A stretch of 64,000 nt of DNA, taken from NCBI GenBank assembly GCA_018694295.1, contig JABHNK010000053.1, positions 833-64,832 on the forward strand, in the 5' to 3' direction. Positions 2,634-61,875 of the stretch are shown piece by piece (the stretch's first letter is position 1; the number at the start of each line of letters is the position of its first letter). The translations under genes and the position numbers were made by a program. Below the pieces are notes generated by a model. That model made no database searches and was not told the DNA's origin. It was given only the letters and a program-made list of their open reading frames with translations. This DNA comes from Waddliaceae bacterium (GTDB taxonomy: Bacteria; Chlamydiota; Chlamydiia; Chlamydiales; JABHNK01).

Positions 2634-3851
2634 ATGGGCCCTATACTACCTGCAGTAAATGAAGAATTAATAAAATATTTCACAGACCACTTTGATTGGG
2701 GCCTTGTTAGGCAAAGGATCACCAAAGATTATATTACTTCATTAAGAGAAAATTTTTTTTCCGACAGAATATCCGACTGCTTGGAAGCTATAGAAGAGCT
2801 TGATGGATTTGTGAGATGCCGGGAACTTGACGACGAACTTCGTCAAAAAGCTATTTACGTATTACGTGCAGCTGTTTTTTCCAGCTCTAGCACCGAAATA
2901 GTTCGTGTGGGGGCTCTAGCTTTTTATGAGCTTCTTGATACTTTGCGTGAGATTGTGAGCGATGCGGAGCGTGGCGACGGACTTCGTCAAGAAGCTATGT
3001 ATTCATTAAATTTCTTTGCTTCTAAAGATTCCTTTCTCGAAAACGAAGACCTTCGTGAGAGTGCTCTAACAGTGCTTGGTGGGCTTATCGATGCTTTGTG
3101 TGAGATTGTGAGAATAAGTGGGCGTGACAGCTACATTTGCATTATTGCTATTTTGTCATTAGGTTTCATTGTTTCTTCAGACAACATAGTTCATAGAACA
3201 AGGGCACTAGAAAAGCTTGATGGCTTTGTGAGGTGTAAGTCTCTTGGCCCCAATCTTCGCAGAAAGGCTAGTAAGGAATTAAATAGTTATATTTCTTCCA
3301 CTTCTGACAGCGAAGAAGCTCGTGCGCAGGCACTAGCAGTGCTTTGTGGGCTTATCGATACTTTTGGTGAGATTGTGATGGGTGATATTTTGACGGGTGA
3401 GGGTGGTGAAGTTTTTTTTCGTCAAGAGGCTATTTTGGGATTAAAACGGGTTGTTCGTTACGGTGAAAAGACTGATAGAACGAGGGCTCTAAAAAAGCTT
3501 GTTGGATTCTTGAGATCCAAAGAGCCTTACTCCATCCTTCTCGGCACCGCTTCGAATGCATTATATACCGCCACTCATTCTGACAAATATTTTGTCAGCG
3601 AAGAAGCTCGCAGGCAGACTCTTGTGGAGCTTGTTGGACTTGCCGATATTTATTATGCTGAGGCTGAGGTGGATAGTGATCTTAGCGACTTTTTTCATGA
3701 TAATACTTTTTTGGTATTAAAGTATTTTGCTTCTTCTGACAGCGAGGTCGTCAGCGAAGATGTTAAAAAAATAGCTATAGAAAAGTTAAGAGTTTACAAA
3801 CAACCCAGAGTTATAACTTTAGAGGAGCTGTATGCAAGATTAAATCCCTGA
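2634..3851 (+). CDS. hypothetical helical-repeat (HEAT/ARM-like) protein
   Basis: 405-aa ORF with about 5 degenerate internal repeats of the form LRQxA..(S-rich)..AL.VL.GLIDT..EIV. No catalytic motif recognised. Confidence 0.6.
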   Translation: MGPILPAVNEELIKYFTDHFDWGLVRQRITKDYITSLRENFFSDRISDCLEAIEELDGFVRCRELDDELRQKAIYVLRAAVFSSSSTEIVRVGALAFYELLDTLREIVSDAERGDGLRQEAMYSLNFFASKDSFLENEDLRESALTVLGGLIDALCEIVRISGRDSYICIIAILSLGFIVSSDNIVHRTRALEKLDGFVRCKSLGPNLRRKASKELNSYISSTSDSEEARAQALAVLCGLIDTFGEIVMGDILTGEGGEVFFRQEAILGLKRVVRYGEKTDRTRALKKLVGFLRSKEPYSILLGTASNALYTATHSDKYFVSEEARRQTLVELVGLADIYYAEAEVDSDLSDFFHDNTFLVLKYFASSDSEVVSEDVKKIAIEKLRVYKQPRVITLEELYARLNP

Positions 3852-15177: not shown

Positions 15178-15373
15178 TTCGGAATAGGACTTTACCACGG
15201 AGATCACAGAGGAATCACAGAGTTTTCACGGAGAGCGCCCACTGCGCAGAGCGCGCAGCGGACGCACTTCTCATCATTGCCTGCGGCAGGCAATGATGAA
15301 CATAAATATTGTCATGTTCAGGTGATATATTCCCCAAATGTAAAATGTACTAAAATCTATTAAAGTAGTAGAT
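15177..15373 (+). repeat. A-family structured repeat, copy A1 (long form with palindrome tail)
   Basis: GTTCGGAATAGGAC..CACAGAGTTTTCACGGAGAGCGCCCACTGCGCAGAGCGCGCAGCG..TCATCATTGCCTG/cgg/CAGGCAATGATGA..AAATGTAAAATGTACTAAAATCTATTAAAGTAGTAGAT. Abuts the RND gene stop. Confidence 0.85.
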
Positions 15374-15483
15374 TTTTTAGGCGGTATATGTTTTTAAAAA
15401 ATAAAACAGCAATACTATGTAGTCTTTTTTTTATTGCATTAAAACTGGTTATAAGTTATAATATAGGCTTAAATTTAATTTAA

Positions 15484-15870
15484 ATGAGGTTTAGTATGAG
15501 AATTGAAGCATTTAGAGAATCGGTGAAGGATCTTTCTGAAAATAAATTAAGAGATCGCTATCTGAAAATTAAGGAGAGTAAAGAGTTTAGGACTGAATCG
15601 CTTATCGGGCTTGAAGCAGGATTGGCGGTTGTTACCGCGATTGCGTTGAAAAGCTTTGCGGTTTTATCTGGTACTTTTGCGATAGTATGCGCTTTAAATG
15701 TAGGCGTAGTAATCGGCGTTCTTCTCAAAAATCGTGCAGATGCGCGTAAGGAAAAAATAATAGAAGATGTTCTTAAGGACAAAGGAAGGCAGATAGAGTT
15801 CAAATGGGATAGATTTAGAATTTTGTCGGGTTGGTCTTCACAAATTACGGATATACAAGCGCAAGCATAA
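15484..15870 (+). CDS. hypothetical membrane protein, Inc-like (bilobed hydrophobic domain)
   Basis: 128 aa. A hydrophobic stretch of about 45 aa (GLEAGLAVVTAIALKSFAVLSGTFAIVCALNVGVVIGVLL) sits after a polar N-terminus. Confidence 0.5.
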   Translation: MRFSMRIEAFRESVKDLSENKLRDRYLKIKESKEFRTESLIGLEAGLAVVTAIALKSFAVLSGTFAIVCALNVGVVIGVLLKNRADARKEKIIEDVLKDKGRQIEFKWDRFRILSGWSSQITDIQAQA

Positions 15871-15918
15871 TAAAAACATCCTCAAAATCAGTTGGTTATT
15901 AAGACGAACGTTGATCGA

Positions 15919-16041
15919 GGTTCGGAATAGGATTTTACCACAGAGATCACAGAGGAACCACAGAGTTTTCACGGAGAGCGCCCACTGCGCAGAGCGCGCA
16001 GCGGACGCACTTCTCATCATTGTCTGTGGCAGACAATGATG
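15919..16041 (+). repeat. A-family repeat, copy A2 (short form)
   Basis: Same core as A1. The hairpin allele is CATCATTGTCTG/tgg/CAGACAATGATG. Confidence 0.85.
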
Positions 16042-16059
16042 TACTGACCTTGTACTACA

Positions 16060-17418
16060 TCACTTCCATGCTCGAATGATCGCTGATGATTCATGTGGCT
16101 TCATAACATGAGTATTAAATAAATAGTCGATTGTCTTGCGGCTTGTTGTAATGTTTACTTCTGTAACACTCGCTTCCGAAAAACCTAATTTCGTCATAAT
16201 TTCTTTTTTTGTCTTATCATGATCTTGCATAAAGCTAGAATAACGCTCGTCGCCAGAAGGAAGAAGCGGAGGATGTGGCGGGTGTTCTGAGGCTTTTTCT
16301 AGCAAAAACTCTGCTTGTTGCTTGAAAGCATCCTCAAACGCCGATTCTATCTCTTCCCTATGAAGCGTATCAATAACGGTGTCTCCAGGCTCTGCAGGCT
16401 TGTAAAAGTCACAAAATCCCTCGAGAGGGTCTAGCGCCATGCGATACTCTTCTTTATGACCACTAGCGAGTGCCTTTATATTCCGCTGCCTTACGCGTTC
16501 TCCCAAAATATGAAATGGGCAATAGGCCAAGCCTATTTTTAGTGGAGCATAGTTGTTTTTTTCTACCATGCGCGCTAAGAACGCCTCTTCATCATAAGGA
16601 TCAAAAATGACCGACGTCCCTTCTCTTGATTGTTCAATAACAGCCTCATCCATTTTTCTTGTGTACTCTTCTTCACGCTTGATATCATATTTTTCCTTTT
16701 TTGCCGCTTTCAAGGCTTCTTGTGCATCTTTTAGCACTTCTTTTGTAATGTCCGGCTTCCAACGCACTCTATTAGCAAATAGTGCACAAGCAATATCTTG
16801 GTGTTCCATTGCTTGAGCCATACGAGAATATAGTTCTGGAGTCTGATTTCGAACCAAATTAGCATCTCGTGATGCCGGGTCCATCATCGTTTTAAGCTCA
16901 CCGAGAGCTTCTTTAGCGTCCCTTAGCGTCTCTTCCGAAATATCAGGCTTCCAATGCGGTTCAAGGCCTATTCTTATCGCACGGCCAATATCTACAGGCT
17001 CTGTTGCCAAAATTATTTTCGCGTATAGTTCTGGAAACTCTGCTCGCGCTGTTTCCGCGTCTTGTAATGGAAAGTCTATGTCCATGCCAGATTCTTCCCA
17101 TTCAGGAGCTTCCTTCCTTAGCTGGCGTATTATCGATGACTTCCCCGCTGTAGAGTTCCCCAAAAGAACAAATATCTTTCCTTCACTATATTGGCGCAAA
17201 TGTTGAAGGGCGTATTTTTCTGCTTCAAGTGATCGGCGAAGCTGATGGGAAATGATTGCCTGAAAAATGGTGGCAATTTTTTTTACAGGCGCTTGTTGTA
17301 TAATCCTTGGATTATAACGTACTATTTGCTGATCACCCATTTTGCCAGTTTTTGATTGGCGGGATGGTGTCGACCCTGGTCTAGTTATACCTTGTCCTTC
17401 TATTTCTGGTATTGGCAT
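16060..17418 (-). CDS. chloramphenicol-phosphotransferase-like P-loop protein with internal duplication
   Basis: KIFVLLGNSTAGKSSIIRQLRKEAPEW resembles the CPT N-terminus (LNGGSSAGKSGIVRCLQ..PEPW). Walker-B-like VIFDP. GGAGG RBS. Confidence 0.7.
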   Translation of the reverse strand: MPIPEIEGQGITRPGSTPSRQSKTGKMGDQQIVRYNPRIIQQAPVKKIATIFQAIISHQLRRSLEAEKYALQHLRQYSEGKIFVLLGNSTAGKSSIIRQLRKEAPEWEESGMDIDFPLQDAETARAEFPELYAKIILATEPVDIGRAIRIGLEPHWKPDISEETLRDAKEALGELKTMMDPASRDANLVRNQTPELYSRMAQAMEHQDIACALFANRVRWKPDITKEVLKDAQEALKAAKKEKYDIKREEEYTRKMDEAVIEQSREGTSVIFDPYDEEAFLARMVEKNNYAPLKIGLAYCPFHILGERVRQRNIKALASGHKEEYRMALDPLEGFCDFYKPAEPGDTVIDTLHREEIESAFEDAFKQQAEFLLEKASEHPPHPPLLPSGDERYSSFMQDHDKTKKEIMTKLGFSEASVTEVNITTSRKTIDYLFNTHVMKPHESSAIIRAWK

Positions 17419-17497
17419 TGCTTAACCTCCACTTATATAAATGCGCTTATCGTATATAATCGTGATTTTAAAGAGAAAGTCAAGTGAAGTTTATTAA

Positions 17498-17684
17498 GAG
17501 TTCGGAGCTCGGAATAGGATTTTACCACGGAGATCGCAGAGGACGCACAGAGTTTTTCACAGAGAGCGCCCACTGCGCAGAGCGCGCAGCGGGCACACTT
17601 CTCATCATTGCCTGTGGCAGGCAATGATGAATATAGATATTCCCCAAATGTCAAAATGTACTAAAATCTACTAAATTAGTAGAT
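17498..17684 (+). repeat. A-family repeat, copy A3 (long form with palindrome tail)
   Basis: Core as in A1. The tail ends in the perfect 19-bp palindrome ATCTACTAAATTAGTAGAT (17666..17684). Confidence 0.85.
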
Positions 17685-17726
17685 AATTGGGCGAAAATGC
17701 CCGCTTTTCATGCGAAATTCTTCGTA

Positions 17727-17767
17727 AAATGTGTCAAAACCTACTAATTTTAGTAAAATTAGTAGAT
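17727..17767 (+). repeat. 40-bp AAATGT(G)TCAAAA..TTAGTAGAT repeat (D3)
   Basis: Direct repeat of 17646..17684 and 18087..18125. Contains the palindrome TACTAATTTTAGTA and the half-site TTAGTAGAT. Confidence 0.7.
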
Positions 17768-17775
17768 TCTTTGAT

Positions 17776-18087
17776 ATGGTCAACATAAAGGTAATCACCG
17801 AGGCGATACAAGAGCTTAAAGATCAAATTCGTGAAGAGGCAGAAAAAAGCAAAAAATTTCGGCAAGGGCTGATGACCTTTGATCCCGAGTTGAATATTCG
17901 TCAATCGGCGTTACTTTTTCATGCTATGAAGCATCCTTCTGAGGTTTTTTCTATAAAGGCTCACCAGACGACAAATCATATATCTTATCAGACGGCAAGG
18001 ACAGACCTTCTAGAGCTGGCAGATAAGGGATATCTGAAACAAATCAAAAAAGGAAAAACCTTTTATTTCATATCTGCCGATAATTGA
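17776..18087 (+). CDS. Fic-family C-terminal winged-helix fragment (stand-alone wHTH or gene remnant)
   Basis: The NIRQSALLFHAMKH..ISYQTARTDLLELADKGYLKQIKKGKTFYF pattern is typical of the C-terminal DNA-binding-like domain of long Fic proteins. There is no Fic core. The GTG at 17731 lies inside a repeat, so I prefer the ATG at 17776. Confidence 0.5.
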   Translation: MVNIKVITEAIQELKDQIREEAEKSKKFRQGLMTFDPELNIRQSALLFHAMKHPSEVFSIKAHQTTNHISYQTARTDLLELADKGYLKQIKKGKTFYFISADN

Positions 18088-18324: not shown

Positions 18325-21300
18325 ATGAAATGGTTTATTTCTCTATTGTTCTTCTGTAATTGTTATGCTGCTGACCCCAATACAATTCTCGACAATGTCA
18401 ACATCTCCACTGGCTCCATTAACTACAAACAAACGGATCTCGTTGTCGATGCTATCGAACCCTTGATCATCGAACATTCATATCAAGGCACTGAAAAAGC
18501 TGATGTCTTCTTCCCCCACCTTAAAGCAAAGATAGGATTAAGCTCGAATAACATAGAATTTTTCGCTTGTGAACCTAGCGGTCTTGCCCTTTATTATCTA
18601 TGGAATCGCTCAGCATCGTTTGATTGCTGTCCACAAAATATCCCAGGCTTAACAAACACTTCAGAAAATAATCTTTCAGCACGGAATAATCCTCTCAATA
18701 ATTGCGCTACTTTTAATCCTGGTGGCCATTCAGTGCGCGTTACTTTGCCTGACGGAGGATTCCGAGCATATCGCCTAAACTCAGATTCCTGCACTGAGAG
18801 AGACCTTCATTTAACGATGGAAGTATTGCCAAACGGCAATCAGCGGCACTATGAATATGATGGACAGAGGCGTCTCGCCCGCGTTAGCACAAAAAACTGT
18901 TCGGGAGCGATAGAATATGCATGGGCGAAATTTTCGTATGATGGTGACGACGTCGTTGTCGATACTAGCGACGGTCAGCAAGCCACCTATCACTTTATAA
19001 AACACAAACACAAAGTTTTTTTAGATACCGTTTCTATCCCAGAACGGCCGAAAATACAGATATCTTATCACGAAGGTAAAGAAAGCCTTTTACCTCAAGA
19101 AATCTCTGTTGATGGTCAGCCTGTCTTTCATGTCGATTACAACCCCGGAGAAACACGCATTTCGTCGATGGAGCTTTTCATCGAAAAAGACAAACCCTCT
19201 GTACCATTCCGCACTTTCTCCTATCAAGATGGCAAGACCGAAAGTCGTGACGCTGCGGGGATGCTCACAACACACCATTTCGACAAAGATTCTCGCCTTG
19301 CTAAGGTCGATAATTATAAAGAAAACGACGAGCTTTTTTCTAGCCAGCATTTAACGTGGGAAGGCGCTAATCTTAAAGAAAAGGCGCTTTTTTCTGCCTC
19401 CGGGGATTGTATTTTCTCTCGTGAGTTTTCCTATGACGATCTTGGTAATGTTACCGAAGACATCTTTCATGACGATTCCTTAGATACCACATACAGCAAA
19501 AGTTTTTCTTATTCTTCCGATGGCAGAAACATGCTTCTCAAAGAAACCGAAGACTCCGGGCTTATATCAACTTTCGAATATCTTCAAGGAACCGATCTGA
19601 TTTCAAAGAAACTTATCGCCGGCCCCGAAGGCACCTTCCAGCGCTATTTTTTTGTATATGACGACAACAATCTATGCGTCGCTGAAATCTCCGACGACGG
19701 CGATGCCAAAGGCATCGATGATTTTAGTGGCGTCTCCGAGCGTAAAATATGTAGAATTTCCCGCTCGGAAGAAAACTTTCTACCCATAACCATCCAAGAA
19801 CTGTATTGGGATGGCAAAGAAATTCCTTTGTCGACGCGGAAAATTTCTTACAACACCGAAAATAAAGTTGTCCGTGAAGATGTTTACGATAGCGATGGCA
19901 TATTTTTATATTCACTCCATACGGATTATGACTCTCGAGGAAACATATCCAGGAAAACAGATCCGCTAGGGCGTGAGAGCTTATATGAATATGATGACTT
20001 TGGACGCTTGATCTTCGAACAAAAAGCAGGAAAACCATTTTCAAGACGCTACTACTACGATCTCGCTGGAAGGTGTATCTTCTCCGAAGAATATGATATG
20101 GAAGGAGACAGACGTGCGGTGTCGACGCATTACGACACTCAAGGGCGTCCGATTTCTATTACTGACGAACATGGTAATATAACAGAAAACACCTATGATG
20201 CTTTCGGTAATTGTATTGAAACAAGAGCCCCTGACATCCTTGATGAAAATGGAAACATATATTCTCCAGTCCTTAAAAATGCTTTCGACGAGCAGGGTAA
20301 CGCCATAAAGTTATATGGCGCTGATAACAGTGTTGTCGAGACGAGTTTCAATGCCCTCGGTGGCCCTATAACAATAAACCATCCTGATGGCACCGTCACC
20401 AGAAACACCTATCTTCCTAATGGTTTGCGAGAAAAAACTATTACTGACGATGGCTTGGAAACACGTTTTACCTATGATATCCTTCAACATGTTATCGCAC
20501 AAGAAACCTTCTCTCCCGAAGGCATTTGTCTTGTTCGTGAAAGCTGGGAATACAATACTTTTCACATGCTGTCGCATACAGACATCGAAGGACAAAAAAC
20601 AGTATACTCCTATGACCGTGCAGGAAGGAAGACAGCAGAACAGTGTGGAGATCATCGCTTACAATTCTCTTATGATTCCAGAGGATATCTACTGTCGACT
20701 TTTGATGTTTCTAGCGGAATAACGCATACACAGAGTACCGACTTGGCAGGAAGAAAGACCGAAGAATGGATAGAGCAGCCTAATGGCAACGTCGAAGACC
20801 ATACGATATTTCATAACACATATTATGATAAAATCTTCCGTGTCGTTCGTGGCGACGCTGTCGACGAAGTCGAATATGATGGACGCGGAAGGAAAGTCTT
20901 ACATATCGACCCTCTTGGCGCTAAAACAACGACCTCATACGAAGACAACTACTGCAACGGTTTGGGACAAAACGTTCTGCGTACGACAACGACGATGCCT
21001 AATGGTATGAGCCTCGTTGAAACCTATGACACCCTGTCTCGCGTAATAAAGATAGAAAAGAAAGACCTCGAAAAACAGGTTCTTCACAAAGAAGAGCTTT
21101 TTTACGACCGTTCTAGTAATATGGCTATGTCTGTCGTCACGATTTTCAAGGATGATGCGCCGCCTAGGACAATTTCTACGTGCTTTGTCTATGATAGTAT
21201 GCATAGGCTTATTTCTAAAACAGAGGCAGACCAAAGGACGACGTCATATTCTTATGATTCTATAGGGCGTGAAATCTTACGTAAGAAGCCTGACGGCGTA

Positions 21301-23436
21301 GAGATTATGTCTTCATACGACTATCTTGGTAGGGTGACGGAACTACGTTCGTCTGATGGTTCGGTACAATATCGTTATTCCTATGACGAAGGCATGCAGC
21401 CGACGCGTATAGAAGATATTGTTGCAGGAACAACGCATCATTGTTCTTACGACAAAGAGGGAAATCTCATCTTCGAAGCAAACGGATGCGGTCTTGTCCT
21501 TCAGTGGACGTACGATGCTGTGGGGCGTCCATTATCGCTAAAACTTCCCGACGATACCCTCATAGAGTATTCTTATGAAGGCTCTCATCTGTCGGAGGTC
21601 TCACGGCCGACATATTCCCACAGATATCTTTCTTTCAACGAACATGGCCACATCGCCGAAGAGCAGCTTATCGGTGATATGGGCGCTAAGAGCACTTCAT
21701 ATGACATTCTTGACCGCCCGTTCTTACAACGCTCGTCATCTCATGAAATTTCACAGACATTCAACCTCAACGGTGAAATCGAAACGGTTACTTCTTCGTT
21801 GATAGGTTTCAAGGACTATGAACACAACCTTCTTTCGTTTCTTGTTAAGGAAGACGAAGAAGAGTATCAATACGATTCTATTGGGAACCCTGCGGAGATC
21901 CCTGTCGACGACCTCAACCAGCTTCAGAGGGAGGATCTTTCCTATGATTTGAACGGGAACCTCCTTACGAGAGAAGACCTGTCTTTCAGCTACGACGCTT
22001 TAGACCGCCTTGCCACGATAGCAGGTCCTAATGATACCATAACATATACTTACGACCCTTTTGGTCGTATGCAGTCTAAGACAACGAGCGAAGGGGTGAT
22101 ATATTTCATCTGCGATCACGATTCGGAGATCGGCGCTGTCGATGCAGAAGGCACTATCATACAACTTCGCGTCCTTGGTGATGGCATTAACAGTGAAAGT
22201 GGTGCTGCTGTTGCTCTTGAGCTTCGTGGAGAGGTTTATGTTCCAGTCCATGATCTTAGAGGAAACTTAATCGCTCTGTCCTCTCTCGATGAAAAAGATG
22301 TAGTGCAGACGTATGATATGAATGCTTATGGGCAATGTGATATATCCGACCCACTGTCGCCGTGGCGTTTTTCTTCCAAACGCCATGAAGAGGGAGGCCT
22401 AGTTTGTTTCAGACATCGTTTCTATGATACTACTCTAAAGCGCTGGCTTACTCCAGACCCTGCAGGGAATATTGATGGCTCAAACCGCTATGGTTATGTC
22501 CTCAGCAATCCCGTCAACCGCCTCGACCAGTGGGGGCTTTATGAAACTCCTATTTGTATTGAATCTCCATATGTTGGAGCCGCAAGCTTCCGAGTCACTT
22601 TTTCATTCGATATGAGCTCTATGATGAATGCAGGTACATTTGAAGAGCAGGTTAGTTCTTTAGGCCTTGTTATGCAACATCTCATAGTCAACAATGATGA
22701 TGTACACTACCTGCGTAGCAGCGCTACAGAAATTGCTCAAGCAAAGTCATATGAACTACAAAAGTTTTTCTCTGCGGCCTTGGAATTCTCAAATGAAGGC
22801 GAGATTCTCTTGACGTCTTTAACCAACGGTATTGGTAATAAACCACACGATTTTACATCATCGATTAAAAGTGTAAATAATATTTTTCATAACGACGTGT
22901 TCATGATGGGGCTCTTCAACGCAACAGAAGGTCTTAAAACGGATCTAAACAGGGTGTTCGTTGAAGGTCAGGGATATGATACTCCGATAGTCATTATGAT
23001 GAGAACGGAAATTCTTTTTAATGCACGTCTGTGTGAGAGAGTGGGAGATAACACCTATTTTTTAAAAATCCTCCACAGCGAAGCAGGCTTGATATACTGC
23101 AATGCTTTTAATGGGATGACTCTCGAACAGCAAAATCTTGTCAAAAAACATGCTTTGGTTGCTGCTTTTGGCCCTGCCGAGCCAGTTCCCAGATCTTCCG
23201 CTTATGAAGCGATAAACATATATTCTGAGAAAGACAATATTACAGGGGGCGCCGGTAGAAACAAAGATCCTAATGACTATGATATTCGTTTCGTTGAATG
23301 TATTTCATCGTGGTCTGAACATAATTTGCTTGGCTATGCAGATCATGCGTATCTTGGGTCGACATATCAAGAAGCTACTAGTGATATGATAAAACATTTT
23401 GATGCTAAATATAAGTTTTATCGCTATAATAAATAA
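18325..23436 (+). CDS. Rhs/YD-repeat polymorphic toxin with Sec signal peptide and novel C-terminal domain
   Basis: 1703 aa. Signal peptide MKWFISLLFFCNCYA. Dozens of YD repeats (YDDLGN, YDSRGN, YDDFGR, YDTQGR, YDPFGR and others). Core terminus RYGYVLSNPVNRLDQWGL at about aa 1405, then a 298-aa tail. Confidence 0.9.
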   Translation: MKWFISLLFFCNCYAADPNTILDNVNISTGSINYKQTDLVVDAIEPLIIEHSYQGTEKADVFFPHLKAKIGLSSNNIEFFACEPSGLALYYLWNRSASFDCCPQNIPGLTNTSENNLSARNNPLNNCATFNPGGHSVRVTLPDGGFRAYRLNSDSCTERDLHLTMEVLPNGNQRHYEYDGQRRLARVSTKNCSGAIEYAWAKFSYDGDDVVVDTSDGQQATYHFIKHKHKVFLDTVSIPERPKIQISYHEGKESLLPQEISVDGQPVFHVDYNPGETRISSMELFIEKDKPSVPFRTFSYQDGKTESRDAAGMLTTHHFDKDSRLAKVDNYKENDELFSSQHLTWEGANLKEKALFSASGDCIFSREFSYDDLGNVTEDIFHDDSLDTTYSKSFSYSSDGRNMLLKETEDSGLISTFEYLQGTDLISKKLIAGPEGTFQRYFFVYDDNNLCVAEISDDGDAKGIDDFSGVSERKICRISRSEENFLPITIQELYWDGKEIPLSTRKISYNTENKVVREDVYDSDGIFLYSLHTDYDSRGNISRKTDPLGRESLYEYDDFGRLIFEQKAGKPFSRRYYYDLAGRCIFSEEYDMEGDRRAVSTHYDTQGRPISITDEHGNITENTYDAFGNCIETRAPDILDENGNIYSPVLKNAFDEQGNAIKLYGADNSVVETSFNALGGPITINHPDGTVTRNTYLPNGLREKTITDDGLETRFTYDILQHVIAQETFSPEGICLVRESWEYNTFHMLSHTDIEGQKTVYSYDRAGRKTAEQCGDHRLQFSYDSRGYLLSTFDVSSGITHTQSTDLAGRKTEEWIEQPNGNVEDHTIFHNTYYDKIFRVVRGDAVDEVEYDGRGRKVLHIDPLGAKTTTSYEDNYCNGLGQNVLRTTTTMPNGMSLVETYDTLSRVIKIEKKDLEKQVLHKEELFYDRSSNMAMSVVTIFKDDAPPRTISTCFVYDSMHRLISKTEADQRTTSYSYDSIGREILRKKPDGVEIMSSYDYLGRVTELRSSDGSVQYRYSYDEGMQPTRIEDIVAGTTHHCSYDKEGNLIFEANGCGLVLQWTYDAVGRPLSLKLPDDTLIEYSYEGSHLSEVSRPTYSHRYLSFNEHGHIAEEQLIGDMGAKSTSYDILDRPFLQRSSSHEISQTFNLNGEIETVTSSLIGFKDYEHNLLSFLVKEDEEEYQYDSIGNPAEIPVDDLNQLQREDLSYDLNGNLLTREDLSFSYDALDRLATIAGPNDTITYTYDPFGRMQSKTTSEGVIYFICDHDSEIGAVDAEGTIIQLRVLGDGINSESGAAVALELRGEVYVPVHDLRGNLIALSSLDEKDVVQTYDMNAYGQCDISDPLSPWRFSSKRHEEGGLVCFRHRFYDTTLKRWLTPDPAGNIDGSNRYGYVLSNPVNRLDQWGLYETPICIESPYVGAASFRVTFSFDMSSMMNAGTFEEQVSSLGLVMQHLIVNNDDVHYLRSSATEIAQAKSYELQKFFSAALEFSNEGEILLTSLTNGIGNKPHDFTSSIKSVNNIFHNDVFMMGLFNATEGLKTDLNRVFVEGQGYDTPIVIMMRTEILFNARLCERVGDNTYFLKILHSEAGLIYCNAFNGMTLEQQNLVKKHALVAAFGPAEPVPRSSAYEAINIYSEKDNITGGAGRNKDPNDYDIRFVECISSWSEHNLLGYADHAYLGSTYQEATSDMIKHFDAKYKFYRYNK

Positions 23437-23449
23437 AAAAGGTTTTTCT

Positions 23450-24088
23450 ATGAAATATTTACTGCTTTCCTTATGTTGTTCTTTATTATTTTTAACGCTC
23501 TATGCGAGTGATAATTCCTATTTTGGTCGTGATCCCGAGCATTATAAAGAAGGTAATAAGCTCATCAACGAGATGTTTAGAGAGTATGCAGAGCGTGTAT
23601 GCAAGCAATATGATTTGAAGTGCGAAGGCGACATGGGGGGCTTCCCGGGGCAGATTCAATCTCTCGGCGGAGTATTTGGCGTCAAGCGGCTACTTGCTGT
23701 GGATGAATTGCGCATTCTCATCCTTAAACTTCTTGCAGACTTTCAAGATACTATAAACAGAAATGAAAAAATCAGACCATTTCTCGCAGAATATCCATTT
23801 GCTGCCGATCGCATCACTATTATGCTAAGAATTTACGATGGAAATAAAAGACCGTCACCTGATGAAATTTCTCTTGCTTTTTCATCTCGAGATCATATTT
23901 CATATTGCTATTCTGATCCAAAGAAATCTATTTTCGAGGATAAAAAAATCCAAGAACCATTCGAAGAGGCATGTGAAAAGGCTGGCATCGATGTTGCGAC
24001 GATATCCCCGATATATTCATTATATGATGATACAGGCCGCTTTCTTAAAACGGAAAAAAATGATAACCCCACTACCAAAAAGAAATAA
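23450..24088 (+). CDS. secreted paralogue 1 (candidate Rhs immunity protein)
   Basis: 212 aa. MKYLLLSLCCSLLFLTLYA signal peptide. 13 nt after the rhs stop. Paralogous to the next two ORFs. Confidence 0.7.
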   Translation: MKYLLLSLCCSLLFLTLYASDNSYFGRDPEHYKEGNKLINEMFREYAERVCKQYDLKCEGDMGGFPGQIQSLGGVFGVKRLLAVDELRILILKLLADFQDTINRNEKIRPFLAEYPFAADRITIMLRIYDGNKRPSPDEISLAFSSRDHISYCYSDPKKSIFEDKKIQEPFEEACEKAGIDVATISPIYSLYDDTGRFLKTEKNDNPTTKKK

Positions 24089-24097
24089 GACGAAATC

Positions 24098-24736
24098 ATG
24101 AAATATTTACTGTTGTTCCTGTGTTTATTCTTTTCGTCCCATATGCTTTATGCAAACGATGAATATTATCATTTTCGCACACCAGATAATCGTCAGGAGA
24201 GCGATAAAGTTATCAACGAAATTTATGAGGAATGTGTAGAACGCCTATGCGAAAAATATCATTTACTGTATCTAGCAGACCTATATCACTTTCCTGAAAA
24301 AATAGACTTCTTAGGCGGGGCATTCGGCATGAAGCGCATGATTTCCGTTGATGAATTGCGGCCTCTTGTACTAGCGTTACTTGCAGATTTTCAAGAGGCG
24401 ATAAACAACAACGAAAAAATCAGGCCGCTCCTCGTTGAATATCCATTTCCAGCGGATCGTATCACTATTATGATAGGTCTTTGTGACGGGGACAAACTAC
24501 CTCCTCATGATGAAGTTTCCAATGCTACTTCAGAGAAGGGTTTTCTTTGCTACAGGTTTAGCGATTTAATCAAAATAGTTCAAGGGAAGGAAGAAATCAA
24601 AGAATCCCTTGAAGAGGCGTGTGAAAAGGCTGGTATAGACCCTGCGACCATATCTCCGATATATTCGCTATATGATGATACAGGCCGCTTTCTCAAAAGT
24701 GAAAAAAACGACAATCCCACTACCCAAAAGGAATAA
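24098..24736 (+). CDS. secreted paralogue 2 (candidate Rhs immunity protein)
   Basis: 212 aa, colinear with paralogue 1. The shared C-terminus is EEACEKAGID.ATISPIYSLYDDTGRFLK.EKNDNPTT. Confidence 0.7.
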   Translation: MKYLLLFLCLFFSSHMLYANDEYYHFRTPDNRQESDKVINEIYEECVERLCEKYHLLYLADLYHFPEKIDFLGGAFGMKRMISVDELRPLVLALLADFQEAINNNEKIRPLLVEYPFPADRITIMIGLCDGDKLPPHDEVSNATSEKGFLCYRFSDLIKIVQGKEEIKESLEEACEKAGIDPATISPIYSLYDDTGRFLKSEKNDNPTTQKE

Positions 24737-24745
24737 GGTGAACTT

Positions 24746-25462
24746 ATGAAATATTTACTGTTATGTCTACCACTTTTATTTTCAACGCTCTATGCCGATA
24801 AATATGCTGATTATGAAGCCTTTAGTAAGAAGGGTGATGCCGCTATGAAGGAAATCGAGGAAGCGTTTGCCAGAGCAGATGGTGATATTGAAGCTTTTTG
24901 TAAGGAGGGCATAGGGGCTATGGATGAGATGCACAAAGAGTTTGAAGAAATAGAAGAGAGAGCAAAAGCTTATTACAAAGATGCCGACATAGATATTAAT
25001 GAATTCTACAAAAAATTTACAGAGCATGTTTATAAAAAATATGAAATGAAATCCGAGAGCAATATAGAAGAATATTTTAAAGAAACGGGCAAGCTTGGCT
25101 CATACTTTAGAACGAACCGCCTATTTACAGTAGAGGAATTGAGGATGCTTATTCTCAATCTTATTGCAGATTTTAAAGATGCTAATGAAGCGTTCAAACA
25201 ATATCCTGGGAAACCCACATATTTTGCGGAGTTTATTTCTTTTCTCATAATCTTTAACGATGATGAGAATGCTTCTCGTTATGATTGTGTTCCATTAGTT
25301 TTTCTGTGCAACGGCAATATCATGTACTTTGATTTAGAAGAAGATGACGAAATAAAAAGTGAAGAATTTCTTGAAGAGGCTTGTGAAAAAGCGAATATTG
25401 ATGTTGCGACGATCTTTCCTATATCTCCGCAAGATGTTGTTTTGCCAGAGCCATTAAAATGA
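24746..25462 (+). CDS. secreted paralogue 3 (divergent, with acidic coiled-coil insertion)
   Basis: 238 aa with the same signal peptide start. Shares the VEELR.LILNLIADF and EEACEKANIDVATI blocks. Confidence 0.65.
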   Translation: MKYLLLCLPLLFSTLYADKYADYEAFSKKGDAAMKEIEEAFARADGDIEAFCKEGIGAMDEMHKEFEEIEERAKAYYKDADIDINEFYKKFTEHVYKKYEMKSESNIEEYFKETGKLGSYFRTNRLFTVEELRMLILNLIADFKDANEAFKQYPGKPTYFAEFISFLIIFNDDENASRYDCVPLVFLCNGNIMYFDLEEDDEIKSEEFLEEACEKANIDVATIFPISPQDVVLPEPLK

Positions 25463-25465
25463 TAT

Positions 25466-25644
25466 GGTCAGGCCGAACATTCAGACATTCGGGGAGCTGA
25501 TAATCCAGACACGACAGTATCCCTGTTCGTCATTGCCTGCCACAGGCAATGGCGAGAAGCGTGTTCGCTGCGCGCTCTGCGCAGTGGGCACTCTCTGTGT
25601 AACTCTGTGTCTCTCCGCTCCCTCTGTGGTAAAAATCCTATTCC
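25466..25644 (-). repeat. A-family repeat, copy A4 (inverted)
   Basis: Reverse complement of the A core (..GCGCTCTGCGCAGTGGGCACTCTC..GTGGTAAAAATCCTATTCC). Begins 3 nt after the paralogue 3 stop. Confidence 0.85.
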
Positions 25645-26332: not shown

Positions 26333-26505
26333 GGGCAAGGCCGAACATTCGGGGAGCTGATAACCCAGACACGACAGTATCCCTGTTCATTATTGTCTGC
26401 CACAGACAATGATGAGAAGCGTGTTCGCTGCGCGCTCTGCGCAGTGGGCACTCTCCGTGAAAACTCTGTGATCTCTGTGTCCTCTGTGGTAAAAAATCCT
26501 ACTCC
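26333..26505 (-). repeat. A-family repeat, copy A5 (inverted)
   Basis: Near-identical to A4. Its terminal AATCCTACTCC contains the ftsK stop codon (CTA at 26499..26501). Confidence 0.85.
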
Positions 26506-37488: not shown

Positions 37489-38088
37489 ATGGCATTATCA
37501 ACAACAATAAAAAAGCTTAAGGACCTTCTTGTAAAGGCCGTGGCTGATTTGGAAAAAGCCGACAACGGTAATAAGGCTGCTTCACAGCGTGTCCGTACAG
37601 GCACTGTTAAGCTCGAAAAGATAGCAAAGCTCTATCGCAAAGAGTCTATCAAAGAAGAAAAGAAGCCGGGCAAGAAGAAAAAAAAGAAGGCTCCAGCTAA
37701 GAAGAAAAAAGCAGTAAAGAAAAAAGTAGCAAAGAAAAAAGCTCCAGCTAAGAAGAAAAAAGTTGTAAAGAAAAAAGCTCCAGCTAAGAAGAAAGTCGTA
37801 AAGAAAAAAGCTCCAGCTAAGAAGAAAAAAGTAGTAAAGAAAAAAGCTCCAGCTAAGAAGAAGAAAGTTGTAAAGAAAAAAGCTCCAGCTAAAAAGAAGA
37901 AAGTCATAAAGAAAAAAGCTCCAGCTAAGAAGAAGAAAGTCGTAAAGAAAAAAGCTCCAGCTAAGAAGAAAGTAGTAAAGAAAAAAGCTCCAGCTAAGAA
38001 GAAAGTCGTAAAGAAAAAAGTTGTAAAGAAGAAAAAAGTAGTAAAGAAAAAAGCTACAGCTAAACTTCCAAAGAAAAAGAAGAAGTAA
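37489..38088 (+). CDS. hctA: histone H1-like nucleoid protein Hc1
   Basis: The N-terminal 60 aa match chlamydial Hc1 (..KGNKAA.QRVRT..KLEK.AK.YRKESIK.EK). The C-terminus is about 10 tandem KKAPAKKKKVVKK units. Confidence 0.92.
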   Translation: MALSTTIKKLKDLLVKAVADLEKADNGNKAASQRVRTGTVKLEKIAKLYRKESIKEEKKPGKKKKKKAPAKKKKAVKKKVAKKKAPAKKKKVVKKKAPAKKKVVKKKAPAKKKKVVKKKAPAKKKKVVKKKAPAKKKKVIKKKAPAKKKKVVKKKAPAKKKVVKKKAPAKKKVVKKKVVKKKKVVKKKATAKLPKKKKK

Positions 38089-51067: not shown

Positions 51068-52159
51068 TTAATCAAGCAGAACCTGATACTTGTTAGCGAG
51101 CTTATATTTTCGTGCTTTATTTGAAGGGTCGACAATTTTTAAAAAACCGCATTCGGTCCATTTTTTGCACAGCGCTGAATTCGTTCTTGGCTTGAAGCCA
51201 AAGATTTCGCCTATCTGTCTGCTGGTAATGATGTCATGTTCTTTAAACAAATCCAGGGCTTTCCGCTGTTTTGGCTCTAACGTTCGCATCAAATCAGAAT
51301 AATCGCTTTCTCCTTTGTTTTGTGCCTTTGTCATCTGTGCGATGACTTTTTCAAAAGCGTAAGCCATGCCTCCGCAGAAATAATCAATCCAACCGGTAAT
51401 ATCAGACTCTGCGCGGCCGAGATAATAATTATGTGATGGGCCAATACTTATTGCATGATAGTATGAGAGAAGGTTTTTAGCATAATATTCTTCTAGAGAA
51501 TATAGGCCCTTTAGATCATAGCCTCCTAGATGTAAGATTAAAGTCGTTAATAATCTAGCTGTTCGCCCGTTTCCATCATAATATGGATGTATCGTAGCAA
51601 ATTGGTAATGAACTATAGCGGCAATAATTGGAATAGGCAATTCGTCATTTTCTTTAATCCAAGACACCATGTTGCGCATCAACCCAGACACGTCTTTGGA
51701 TTCGGGAGGCATATAAACAATTGTTCCCGTCCCGCTATCTTTAATAACGTTTTGGCCTTCGCGATAAGGTGTCGGTTTTACCTTTGAGCGTCCATTACTC
51801 ATAGCAAGAGAGTGCAATGTCTGTATAACTTTTTCTGTTACAGGATGATTTTGTGCAACATACTGTTCCAATTGAGCAAGTGCTGCATAATATCCTTTAA
51901 CTTCACGTTCGTCACGCTCACGACCAGGAAAATGACCTTTATGTTCTATAACATTTTTAACTTCATTAGGCTGTAGGCGATTACCTTCAATCATAGTAGA
52001 ATAATGAGTAGTTAATAGTTTGGTTGTTTCGCGTAGCGATGATAACACCGTGGGCGTTAGCGGCAAAAAGACTGCTTTTTCTTTGCATGCTTCAATACGC
52101 ATTAAATGCTTTGCGATTGTTGTTGTGATGGTATAGGTGGGCTTGAAATTTGTCGGCAT
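51068..52159 (-). CDS. Fic family protein (class II, intramolecular inhibitory helix)
   Basis: Fic motif HPYYDGNGRTARL. N-terminal [ST]xxxE[GN] inhibitory motif (STMIEGN). C-terminal wHTH. Confidence 0.9.
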   Translation of the reverse strand: MPTNFKPTYTITTTIAKHLMRIEACKEKAVFLPLTPTVLSSLRETTKLLTTHYSTMIEGNRLQPNEVKNVIEHKGHFPGRERDEREVKGYYAALAQLEQYVAQNHPVTEKVIQTLHSLAMSNGRSKVKPTPYREGQNVIKDSGTGTIVYMPPESKDVSGLMRNMVSWIKENDELPIPIIAAIVHYQFATIHPYYDGNGRTARLLTTLILHLGGYDLKGLYSLEEYYAKNLLSYYHAISIGPSHNYYLGRAESDITGWIDYFCGGMAYAFEKVIAQMTKAQNKGESDYSDLMRTLEPKQRKALDLFKEHDIITSRQIGEIFGFKPRTNSALCKKWTECGFLKIVDPSNKARKYKLANKYQVLLD

Positions 52160-60776: not shown

Positions 60777-61313
60777 ATGTCATTTGAAAACGCACAAGAG
60801 AACCTAAAAGAATTCGGTAAAGAGCTCGGCCTCGAAGGCCTAGAATTCGACGAAAACAACACCTGTATTCTCGGCATCGACGATGACTTCTCGATGCATA
60901 TAACTTTCGAGCCAAACTCCGATAGAATGTACCTATATTCTCCTATCATCGACGGTCTTCCCGCCGATACGAAAATAAAACTTAAGCTTTATGAAAAGCT
61001 CCTCGAAGGCTCAATGCTCGGTGGGCAAATGGCTGGTGGCGGAATCGGCGTTGCTGTCAACGAAGAACTTGTCCTTATGCATTGCACCCTAGACATGGCA
61101 CATGCCATAGCTTCGGCGCTTAGAGCATTCGCACCATTATACGTCGAGACAATAGAAAAATGGCGCAAAGTCGCACTCGATATCTCCGAAGGTCGCGAGC
61201 CCGAAGAAGTTGGAATAACAGCACCAGGCGCTGTAGCAGGCGGAGCAGCACCAGGCGGTGGCAAGCCTTCTGCAGGAGGCCTTGGCGGAGGACACCCAGG
61301 TATCAAAATCTAA
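60777..61313 (+). CDS. slc1: class I type III secretion chaperone, Slc1 (CT043-like)
   Basis: LYEKLLEGSMLGGQMAGGG and the CesT-like layout recall the chlamydial Slc1 sequence. Sits immediately upstream of ssb, as in Chlamydia. Gly/Pro/Ala-rich tail. Confidence 0.8.
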   Translation: MSFENAQENLKEFGKELGLEGLEFDENNTCILGIDDDFSMHITFEPNSDRMYLYSPIIDGLPADTKIKLKLYEKLLEGSMLGGQMAGGGIGVAVNEELVLMHCTLDMAHAIASALRAFAPLYVETIEKWRKVALDISEGREPEEVGITAPGAVAGGAAPGGGKPSAGGLGGGHPGIKI

Positions 61314-61341
61314 GAAGCCGAAAACCTCAGAATTATAAAAA

Positions 61342-61377
61342 AGAGAAGCCTTCCTAAAGAAAGGCTTCTCTTTTTTT
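61342..61377 (+). terminator. rho-independent terminator
   Basis: AGAGAAGCCTT/loop/AAGGCTTCTCT followed by a T-run. Confidence 0.8.
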
Positions 61378-61443
61378 GTCTCTTTTGTGTATAAAGCTTA
61401 AGTAACAATAGTTCTCTAACCATAAAAAAAAGGGTTTCATATT

Positions 61444-61875
61444 ATGAATATACTACAAATAGCAGGGCGTCTTGGTGCCGATCCAGAATCACGCTTTACA
61501 TCTTCAGGACAGAAAGTCACAACATTGCGCGTAGCATGCAACGTCCGTAAAGGCGGTAACGAAGATACTATGTGGTGGAGAGTGACAATATGGGGAGATC
61601 GCTTCGATAAACTAGTGTCATATCTTAAAAAAGGTAGCGCTATTATCGTTACAGGTACTATGCAAAAACCCGACGTCTATCAAGATCGTAACGGCGACTG
61701 GAAACCTTCTCTCGATATGACAGCAGAAATGATATCGTTCAGCCCATTCGGACGTAGTGATAAAAGTGACGAAAATGCCGATACCGCTTCTAAAGACGCT
61801 TCAGTAGAAGAAACAAAAGGTAATGATGAGCAGGCCGCTGCACCAGCAGCTACTGACGATAACCTTCCGTTCTAA
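61444..61875 (+). CDS. ssb: single-stranded DNA-binding protein
   Basis: OB-fold N-terminus (RLGADPE.RFT..G), acidic tail ending in DDNLPF. Confidence 0.93.
   Translation: MNILQIAGRLGADPESRFTSSGQKVTTLRVACNVRKGGNEDTMWWRVTIWGDRFDKLVSYLKKGSAIIVTGTMQKPDVYQDRNGDWKPSLDMTAEMISFSPFGRSDKSDENADTASKDASVEETKGNDEQAAAPAATDDNLPF

Follow-up and report, generated by a model that had tools for sequence, protein, structure and literature searches.

An Rhs protein with a predicted α/β-hydrolase tail and exported partner proteins: a probable effector-immunity cassette of environmental chlamydiae

Hydrolase effectors and toxin domains comparable to the one described here have precedents in the Tle lipases, which come with periplasmic Tli immunity proteins (10.1101/2023.03.28.534661), and in the Tox-ABhydrolase domains found on RHS toxins (PMC3482391). 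Rhs proteins themselves are familiar in environmental chlamydiae: attention was drawn in 2011 to a Waddlia pair of an Rhs C-terminal domain and its immunity protein (PMC3150448), a catalogue of 2012 covers α/β-hydrolase toxin domains as well as the RHS-linked toxin domains of chlamydiae (PMC3482391), Waddlia chondrophila, with at least 11 rhs genes, is annotated with rhs9 and rhs11 (PMC4989314, PMC7143554), and 'Rhs-like' proteins make up some of the largest orthogroups of Parachlamydiales (PMC6171736). Here we analyse an rhs gene followed by three small paralogous genes, the partners p1 to p3, in a stretch of 64,000 nt from a Waddliaceae bacterium (assembly GCA_018694295.1, contig JABHNK010000053.1, positions 833 to 64,832 of the forward strand), which we call the window and in whose numbering the positions of this locus are given. 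A preliminary description of this DNA considered such a locus unusual for the phylum, a view that is not supported by the reports just cited, in which Rhs is already known and abundant in environmental chlamydiae. We consider the locus to be probably, though by no means certainly, an effector-immunity cassette, in which a predicted serine hydrolase would be the cargo of a Sec-exported Rhs cocoon and the exported partners would be its inhibitors. The hydrolase tail, the partner family, their near-obligate pairing and its spread across several architectures are undescribed in the literature searched.

This reading leans first on gene order. A metagenome scan seeded with the partner family gave 80 loci (L numbers below), 52 of which could be tested, as the sequence ahead of the first partner gene was 300 nt or longer. 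A hydrolase domain ends at most 100 nt upstream, on the same strand, in 47 of these 52; in two others the hydrolase is adjacent though missed by the distance cut-off, and in one (L072) it is a divergent tail, which brings the loci with the partner directly downstream of a hydrolase to 50 of 52. The same order was seen in six out of six loci of other organisms that were inspected one by one. In the two exceptions, an insertion sequence transposase (L092) and a group II intron maturase-like open reading frame (ORF; L083) are inserted upstream. A paralogue family commonly found unlinked, the observation that the preliminary description had named as speaking against its reading, is thus not what we see. 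What varies is the protein that carries the hydrolase. Directly 3′ of homologous rhs genes lie two partner copies in a second Chlamydiota metagenome-assembled genome (MAG; L007), one in L013 and two fused double-domain copies in L010. In L014 (13432-18867), a 1819-aa Rhs is succeeded by a tandem array of eight partner genes (202-204 aa, 77-85% identical). Three 45-aa ORFs lying between these genes correspond to the final ~40 residues of the hydrolase domain, from which it follows that every unit that was duplicated included the 3′ end of rhs. The partner also follows proteins devoid of Rhs: standalone hydrolases of ~320-340 aa in L015 and L016 and, in L097 (6001-10561), a 633-aa hydrolase protein with an acidic, unrelated N-terminal half and no signal peptide. 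Judged by this gene order, the loci show a partner family apparently dedicated to the hydrolase domain whatever its fusion (Rhs, another N-terminus or none).

Further genes were noticed in some of these loci. After the double-domain partners of L010, a 246-aa ORF (15476-16216) joins a partner-like signal peptide to a hydrolase domain, with no Rhs; it may be either an orphan effector or a secondary exported effector. L097 contains a twice-repeated pair made of a partner (179 or 199 aa) and an unrelated exported protein of 235-236 aa whose copies are 91% identical, so a third component may exist in some cassettes. In L015, an Ntox50 toxin gene and a MafI2 immunity gene (2702-3690, minus strand) form a second module of polymorphic-toxin type, 1-2 kb from the standalone hydrolase-partner pair.

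Lipase-foldase pairs, too, are strictly linked. The partners of the hydrolase could then be dedicated periplasmic chaperones, foldases of the Lif (lipase-specific foldase) kind or activators, and not inhibitors. Their export along with a Sec-exported enzyme would suit such a role, and Tli is reported to be required for Tle activation in Enterobacter cloacae (10.1101/2023.03.28.534661). We nevertheless find this explanation improbable. The partners match neither Lipase_chap nor any other Pfam family, and arrays of up to eight copies, like the fused double-domain versions, are typical of immunity genes. Moreover, in L016 and L097 the partner is exported and the hydrolase has no signal peptide, and the two would not meet in the producer; following the logic of Tle and Tli, exported partners beside such hydrolases point to a protein that would guard the envelope against an enzyme coming from outside.

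Other properties of the partners are consistent with inhibitors. The first partner gene encodes a signal-like N-terminus in 28 of 31 loci (in some with a lipobox, LAGC) according to a hydrophobicity and charge heuristic, and this holds even where the neighbouring hydrolase lacks a signal peptide, as in L016 and L097. Copy number ranges from 1 to 8 per locus. Copies are 57-85% identical within a locus and 27-49% identical to those of other genomes, and amplification of the partner has therefore been recurrent and lineage-specific. In the window, p1 and p2 are nearly identical over their last ~45 residues, and p3 has a ~50-aa acidic, helical-looking insert after its signal peptide. Positions 23943-24135 and 24591-24783 are 80% identical over 193 nt, against 71% in the middle parts of p1 and p2; the segment of high identity consists of the 3′ ends plus the start of the next gene, which suggests gene conversion or a recent unequal crossover. 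Two other identities were considered for p1-p3 and rejected: lipoproteins, as the cysteines of the hydrophobic regions are not preceded by a lipobox, and type III secretion system (T3SS) chaperones, as signal peptides are predicted. In the Protein Data Bank (PDB) the partner family has no sequence match, and a profile search gave chance matches only.

The second argument is the nature of the tail. By sequence, this domain (aa 1406-1703) matches nothing in Pfam, NCBIfam or the PDB. Searches of Pfam and NCBIfam with the tail and 35 homologues gave no match above threshold, the DUF2235, lipase and PLD models included; sub-threshold matches to DUF900, DUF676 and PGAP1 appear in single family members only, a sequence profile of the tail found chance matches only in the PDB, and hhalign returned no match between this profile and the Abhydrolase_1 protein encoded in the window itself. 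The method also matters for the apparent size of the two families. Word-indexed and single-sequence searches grossly undercounted them (two relatives for the tail, three for the paralogues), and a scan of a genome collection with an alignment of close paralogues returned one other genome, the Chlamydiota MAG VAR_78, because the pattern was narrow and not because the family is rare. The true sizes were seen only by exhaustive profile search for the tail and by the pattern-based metagenome scan for the partner. The profile search places 336 clusters in the tail family at E ≤ 1e-3, 118 of them at E ≤ 1e-30; some 50 consist of proteins 1650-1840 aa long that end in this domain. All 98 full-length domains have G1502, S1585, D1637 and H1674, and H1584, S1634 and T1680 are nearly invariant among them.

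An AlphaFold2 model computed from a 3-sequence alignment (predicted local distance difference test, pLDDT, 34.6) was discarded, and the one from a 35-sequence alignment (pLDDT 84.8, predicted template modelling score, pTM, 0.86) was used. In this model N1501-G1502 come after strand 89-95, S1585 sits between strand 173-179 and helix 182-191, D1637 comes after strand 223-229 and H1674 after strand 249-252. The model places the putative oxyanion residue, nucleophile elbow, acid and histidine at the canonical positions of an α/β-hydrolase. The top 50 Foldseek matches in the PDB are all α/β-hydrolases, the best (E = 2.7e-4) being RavL; cutinases, Candida lipase B (CALB), Bacillus subtilis LipA and PETase are among them, and a dienelactone hydrolase reaches a template modelling score (TM) of 0.59, target-normalised. 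Structure prediction followed by Foldseek, which the preliminary description had proposed for this domain, thus returns an α/β-hydrolase with an intact predicted triad. On this model the tail is predicted to be a serine hydrolase of the α/β-hydrolase fold (lipase, esterase or cutinase-like), for which lipase or esterase activity may be inferred. The tail of the 1753-aa Rhs of L072 (1638-8032), which is followed by two partner genes, is a divergent α/β-hydrolase (VNGI...AHSRG...TRD...DH) with a canonical-looking AHSRG elbow. The family hidden Markov model (HMM) missed it although partners follow, and the hydrolase family is therefore broader than 336 clusters.

The protein that carries this tail is, as its domain matches support, a genuine Rhs with what appears to be a demarcated C-terminal effector domain. 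Profile searches for RHS_repeat and for the Rhs core, the check suggested in the preliminary description, both matched: RHS_repeat (PF05593) at 9.1e-53 in 7 stretches, and Rhs_assc_core (TIGR03696) at 1.2e-15 over aa 1334-1405. YD_repeat_2x (TIGR01643) matched at 5.7e-36, and precomputed annotation gives PF25023, TEN_YD-shell. The core ends at ...NPVNRLDQWGL (aa 1405, nt 22539), as had been claimed, which leaves a tail of 298 aa. In the boundary motif PVNRLDQWGL the Asp of PxxxxDPxGL is retained and the Pro replaced; of 50 long family members, 49 have a PxxxxDxxGL boundary, most often PxNRLDLFGL. At the other end, the N-terminus MKWFISLLFFCNCYA scores a Kyte-Doolittle hydropathy (KD) of 2.12 over a 10-mer with a +1 n-region, and 44 of 50 long homologues have a comparable signal-like N-terminus by the same heuristic. 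It leads straight into the shell, with no PAAR or prePAAR. The signal peptides that the preliminary description had assigned to the Rhs protein and its paralogues thus recur here as signal-like N-termini on all four proteins.

Toxin-then-immunity order, a demarcation motif and a signal-like peptide are also what a classical polymorphic contact-dependent toxin would show, one of WapA or contact-dependent inhibition (CDI) type with a constant Rhs body and exchanged C-terminal and immunity modules, and other chlamydial Rhs proteins do have different tails, such as Waddlia D6YTT8, whose tail resembles a CdiA C-terminal domain (PMC3150448). For our locus, we regard this as very improbable. The same tail is found on ~50 long Rhs clusters. 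Compared with four homologues, the shell is 41, 36, 34 and 32% identical, the tail 33, 35, 33 and 32% and the partner 49, 43, 28 and 31%; identity shows no drop at the DxxGL boundary, and shell, tail and partner have diverged together. We saw no swapped modules among the family members compared, the ORF listing gave no orphan C-terminal or immunity modules of another type after the locus, and the module exists without Rhs as well (L015, L016, L097). All family members whose source is named are chlamydial (Waddliaceae, Rhabdochlamydiaceae, Parachlamydiales, Parachlamydia sp., Chlamydiota). In these comparisons the cassette appears as a conserved, vertically diverging chlamydial family and not as a locus that swaps C-terminal domains. 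The toxin-then-immunity reading of the preliminary description thus stands for the linkage of a cognate partner, and its label 'polymorphic' falls.

If the locus is an effector-immunity cassette, as we favour, the pre-protein would cross the inner membrane through Sec, the YD shell would fold around the tail and the aspartyl protease of the core would cut after DQWGL. Exit from the cell could be by the type II secretion system (T2SS) or by outer-membrane vesicles, and the hydrolase, acting from the periplasm or from outside the cell, would cleave ester bonds in lipids of the envelope or of membranes. It would be bound and inhibited by the three exported paralogues, which would shield the producer and its siblings in the same vacuole, and the extra, diverged copies might neutralise variant hydrolases of other chlamydiae. 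An envelope-acting toxin with periplasmic immunity, as put forward in the preliminary description, fits the modelled hydrolase tail; a host target, which it also raised, is considered below.

Several points weigh against our interpretation. Signal peptides were judged only by the simple hydrophobicity and charge heuristic, and in the standalone pair of L015 neither protein has one. Confidence in the model is low over the first ~85 residues of the tail, and the elbow is LHSEAG (family consensus xHSExG) and not the canonical GxSxG. The fold matches stay at the level of the superfamily (E ~1e-4, TM 0.35-0.59, 8-15% identity), and the substrate is therefore a guess. No Pfam or NCBIfam family, including Imm*, Tli, SUKH and Lif/Lipase_chap, matches p1-p3 or 17 further family members. 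A conserved tail is atypical of kin-discrimination toxins and would fit a host-directed role equally well. Finally, no mechanism is known to us that would take a Sec-exported Rhs out of a diderm cell or across the outer membrane of a target.

The host-directed role deserves separate consideration. Here the cocoon would be released into the inclusion or the host cytosol, the hydrolase would act on host membranes (entry, exit or lipid acquisition) and the partners would serve for self-protection only, sparing the bacterium's own membranes while the enzyme is in transit or gathers around siblings. All known chlamydiae are intracellular, and Waddliaceae, Rhabdochlamydiaceae, Parachlamydiales and other Chlamydiota MAGs share this conserved tail, which has diverged in step with the shell. 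The host-cytosol fraction was found to contain the 200-kDa Rhs11 of W. chondrophila, which bears a signal peptide (PMC7143554), a host-directed role has been argued for Waddlia toxins (PMC3482391), and the top structural match of the tail is the Legionella Dot/Icm effector RavL (PMC11696984). However, one inhibitor gene would be enough for self-protection, and 3-8 diverged copies look like protection against variant toxins. Furthermore, host-directed toxins of intracellular bacteria are marked by the absence of immunity genes (PMC3482391), and the tail of Rhs11 may be a different one. Taken as a whole, this explanation seems to us possible but rather unlikely. On the target alone we lean only slightly toward bacterial envelopes (those of other chlamydiae or of symbionts in the same host cell) over host membranes, because copies that have diverged within an array point to protection from variant enzymes; a host-directed role is nearly as likely because of the conserved tail, the intracellular lifestyle and the presence of a Waddlia Rhs in the host cytosol (PMC7143554). 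Returning to the cassette, its extension to the whole phylum is a speculation that we hold doubtful: Rhs cocoons would be used independently of a type VI secretion system (T6SS), exported through Sec and released by T2SS or vesicles to bring a membrane-lytic hydrolase to rival bacteria sharing the host cell or to the membrane of the host vacuole, with periplasmic immunity arrays protecting siblings. If true, Rhs toxins of diderm bacteria would have a new route of delivery, and obligate intracellular chlamydiae would have the first dedicated weapon described for them, whether interbacterial or for exit/entry.

The features of the locus are listed in Table 1. The preliminary description of the layout (a 1703-aa ORF followed by three paralogues with a shared opening) agrees with the sequence. 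The spacers between rhs and p1, p1 and p2, and p2 and p3 measure 13, 9 and 9 nt, ATGAAATATTTACTG opens all three partner ORFs, and each of these starts with ATG, at the first position given in the table, the starts lying 648 nt apart. No terminator-like site was found on the plus strand from rhs to p3, and co-transcription is therefore likely.

Table 1. Features of the rhs-partner locus, with their positions in the window.
Feature	Position	Strand	Basis
rhs: predicted signal peptide, YD shell, Rhs-associated core and predicted hydrolase tail	18325-23436	+	1703-aa ORF; RHS_repeat, TIGR01643, TIGR03696, PF25023
Predicted signal-peptide-like N-terminus MKWFISLLFFCNCYA, cut before ADP	18325-18369	+	Hydrophobicity/charge heuristic
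YD-repeat shell ending in the Rhs-associated core	18370-22539	+	RHS_repeat, TIGR01643, TIGR03696
Rhs-associated core, aa 1334-1405, with RFYD...RW and PVNRLDQWGL	22324-22539	+	TIGR03696
Predicted C-terminal α/β-hydrolase domain, aa 1406-1703	22540-23433	+	AlphaFold2 model, Foldseek, invariant triad
Predicted oxyanion N1501-G1502	22825-22830	+	Model position; G1502 invariant
Predicted nucleophile S1585 in LHSEAG	23077-23079	+	Invariant residue, model
Predicted acid D1637	23233-23235	+	Invariant residue, model
Predicted H1674	23344-23346	+	Invariant residue, model
Partner (immunity-like) paralogue p1, 212 aa, signal-like N-terminus MKYLLLSLCCSLLFLTLYA	23450-24088	+	ORF, paralogy
Partner paralogue p2, 212 aa, 57-58% identical to p1	24098-24736	+	ORF, paralogy
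Partner paralogue p3, 238 aa, 35-38% identical to p1	24746-25462	+	ORF, paralogy

The chromosome is chlamydial, as had been proposed, and the locus lies among core genes: the chlamydia-specific histone-like protein Hc1 (PF07432, 5.7e-20) is encoded at 37489-38088, a CesT-type type III chaperone adjoins the single-stranded DNA-binding protein (SSB) at 60777-61875, and the other ~45 ORFs scanned in the window are housekeeping genes, including a resistance-nodulation-division (RND) efflux pump, FtsK, ComEC and ExbBD. Domains of T6SS, PAAR or VgrG proteins occur in none of the ~45 scanned ORFs, in agreement with the preliminary description, and to our knowledge environmental chlamydiae have no T6SS. 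The identical Rhs protein is present on at least 23 contigs from several marine metagenomes, Saanich Inlet among them, and on the MAG GCA_018646305.1, labelled 'Waddliaceae bacterium' by NCBI.

The ORFs just upstream of rhs (16060-18087) were considered as parts of the module and rejected, being absent from the homologous loci L007, L010, L013 and L014. One of them, a 118-aa ORF (17731-18087, plus strand), has weak winged-helix and SoFic-like C-terminal matches and may be what remains of the C-terminus of a Fic protein; the minus strand carries an intact Fic gene elsewhere in the window (51071-52159). Another (16060-17418, minus strand) encodes a 452-aa P-loop protein with sub-threshold RsgA, AAA and CPT matches, assigned to no known family, and with an internally duplicated segment (...WKPDISEETLRDAKEALGELK... 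/ ...WKPDITKEVLKDAQEALKAAK...). It is kept beside the locus within the same species and absent from homologous loci elsewhere. An intergenic repeat of ~160 nt occurs in five copies of 81-89% identity, three upstream of rhs in one orientation (15181-15341, 15924-16044, 17511-17639) and two downstream in the opposite orientation (25485-25644, 26345-26505); the 64 kb contain no further copies, and Rfam has no match. G+C content is 0.39-0.44 across the 11 kb bracketed by the repeat, against 0.45-0.50 in the flanks. The repeat may be an element resembling miniature inverted-repeat transposable elements (MITEs) or repetitive extragenic palindromic (REP) sequences, and may mark a variable island.

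Environmental chlamydiae have some of their largest gene families in the 'Rhs-like hypothetical proteins', to which no function is assigned. One large subfamily gains a testable reading, that of a serine hydrolase encapsulated by Rhs and paired with its own exported inhibitor, and two unannotated families, the hydrolase tail and its partner, are defined and can be added to domain databases. We regard the cassette as of moderate interest, because a large uncharacterised chlamydial family is given a testable function, the kind of system being already familiar. An antibacterial hydrolase would mean that obligate intracellular bacteria fight one another within host cells and need no T6SS for it; a host-directed one would be a candidate factor for the lysis of the vacuole or of host membranes, made safe for the producer by periplasmic antidotes.

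How the cassette relates to described systems can be followed through the Tle1-5/Tli pairs first. Like the proposed cassette, they consist of a membrane-targeting hydrolase, with a Ser-Asp-His α/β-hydrolase core in Tle1-4, and of an immunity protein that is exported or a lipoprotein and whose genes often form tandem arrays beside the effector. However, the chlamydial tail has no DUF2235, lipase or PLD match in Pfam, its elbow is LHSEAG instead of GxSxG, the scanned ORFs of the window include no T6SS, VgrG or PAAR gene, and the putative effector is the tail of a Rhs predicted to be Sec-exported or a standalone protein. The structural neighbour RavL (PDB 7x2p) resembles the predicted tail in being a small α/β-hydrolase that has no lid and has a Ser-Asp-His triad, and it too comes from a bacterium that lives inside cells (PMC11696984), but its identity to the tail is 11% with a TM of 0.35-0.46, and it uses another secretion system and has neither Rhs nor a partner gene.

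Among Rhs systems, WapA of Bacillus subtilis and the Sec-dependent Rhs proteins of Gram-positive bacteria have a Sec signal peptide, a YD shell, a boundary of the DPxGL type and an immunity gene immediately downstream, which compare with the predicted signal peptide, the shell, the boundary and the putative immunity genes of the chlamydial locus, and, as the latter appears to be, they are independent of T6SS. The chlamydial host, in contrast, is diderm and has an outer membrane to cross, the tail is a predicted hydrolase and not a nuclease, the partner appears to be exported and not cytosolic, and the tail is not polymorphic. In the TcB-TcC cocoon, a YD shell encapsulates a C-terminal toxic domain and releases it by autoproteolysis, and it is used on eukaryotic cells; no TcA or TcB partner and no β-propeller plug was detected at the chlamydial locus, and Tc toxins have no immunity gene.

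Closer still in lineage are the Rhs proteins of Waddlia and other Parachlamydiales (rhs1-rhs11), which belong to the same phylum, measure ~200 kDa and have a predicted signal peptide (PMC7143554). They form a large orthogroup that is absent from Chlamydiaceae (PMC6171736), and the Waddlia Rhs papers assign to rhs1-rhs11 neither the hydrolase tail nor the partner family. The signal-peptide-bearing ('T2SS-class') RHS toxins of Zhang et al. (2012, PMC3482391) have the succession of Sec signal, RHS repeats, C-terminal toxin and downstream immunity gene that is predicted for the chlamydial locus. In the same work, Tox-ABhydrolase-1, -2 and -3 are α/β-hydrolase domains on RHS toxins, Tox-ABhydrolase-2 being found in a Parachlamydia (PMC3482391); the chlamydial tail may belong to Tox-ABhydrolase-2 or -3 or be distinct from them. 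The partners reported there, SUKH, Imm66 and Imm69, do not match the chlamydial partner family. Furthermore, the Parachlamydia Tox-ABhydrolase-2 was reported without an immunity gene, whereas the tail family described here almost always comes with one.

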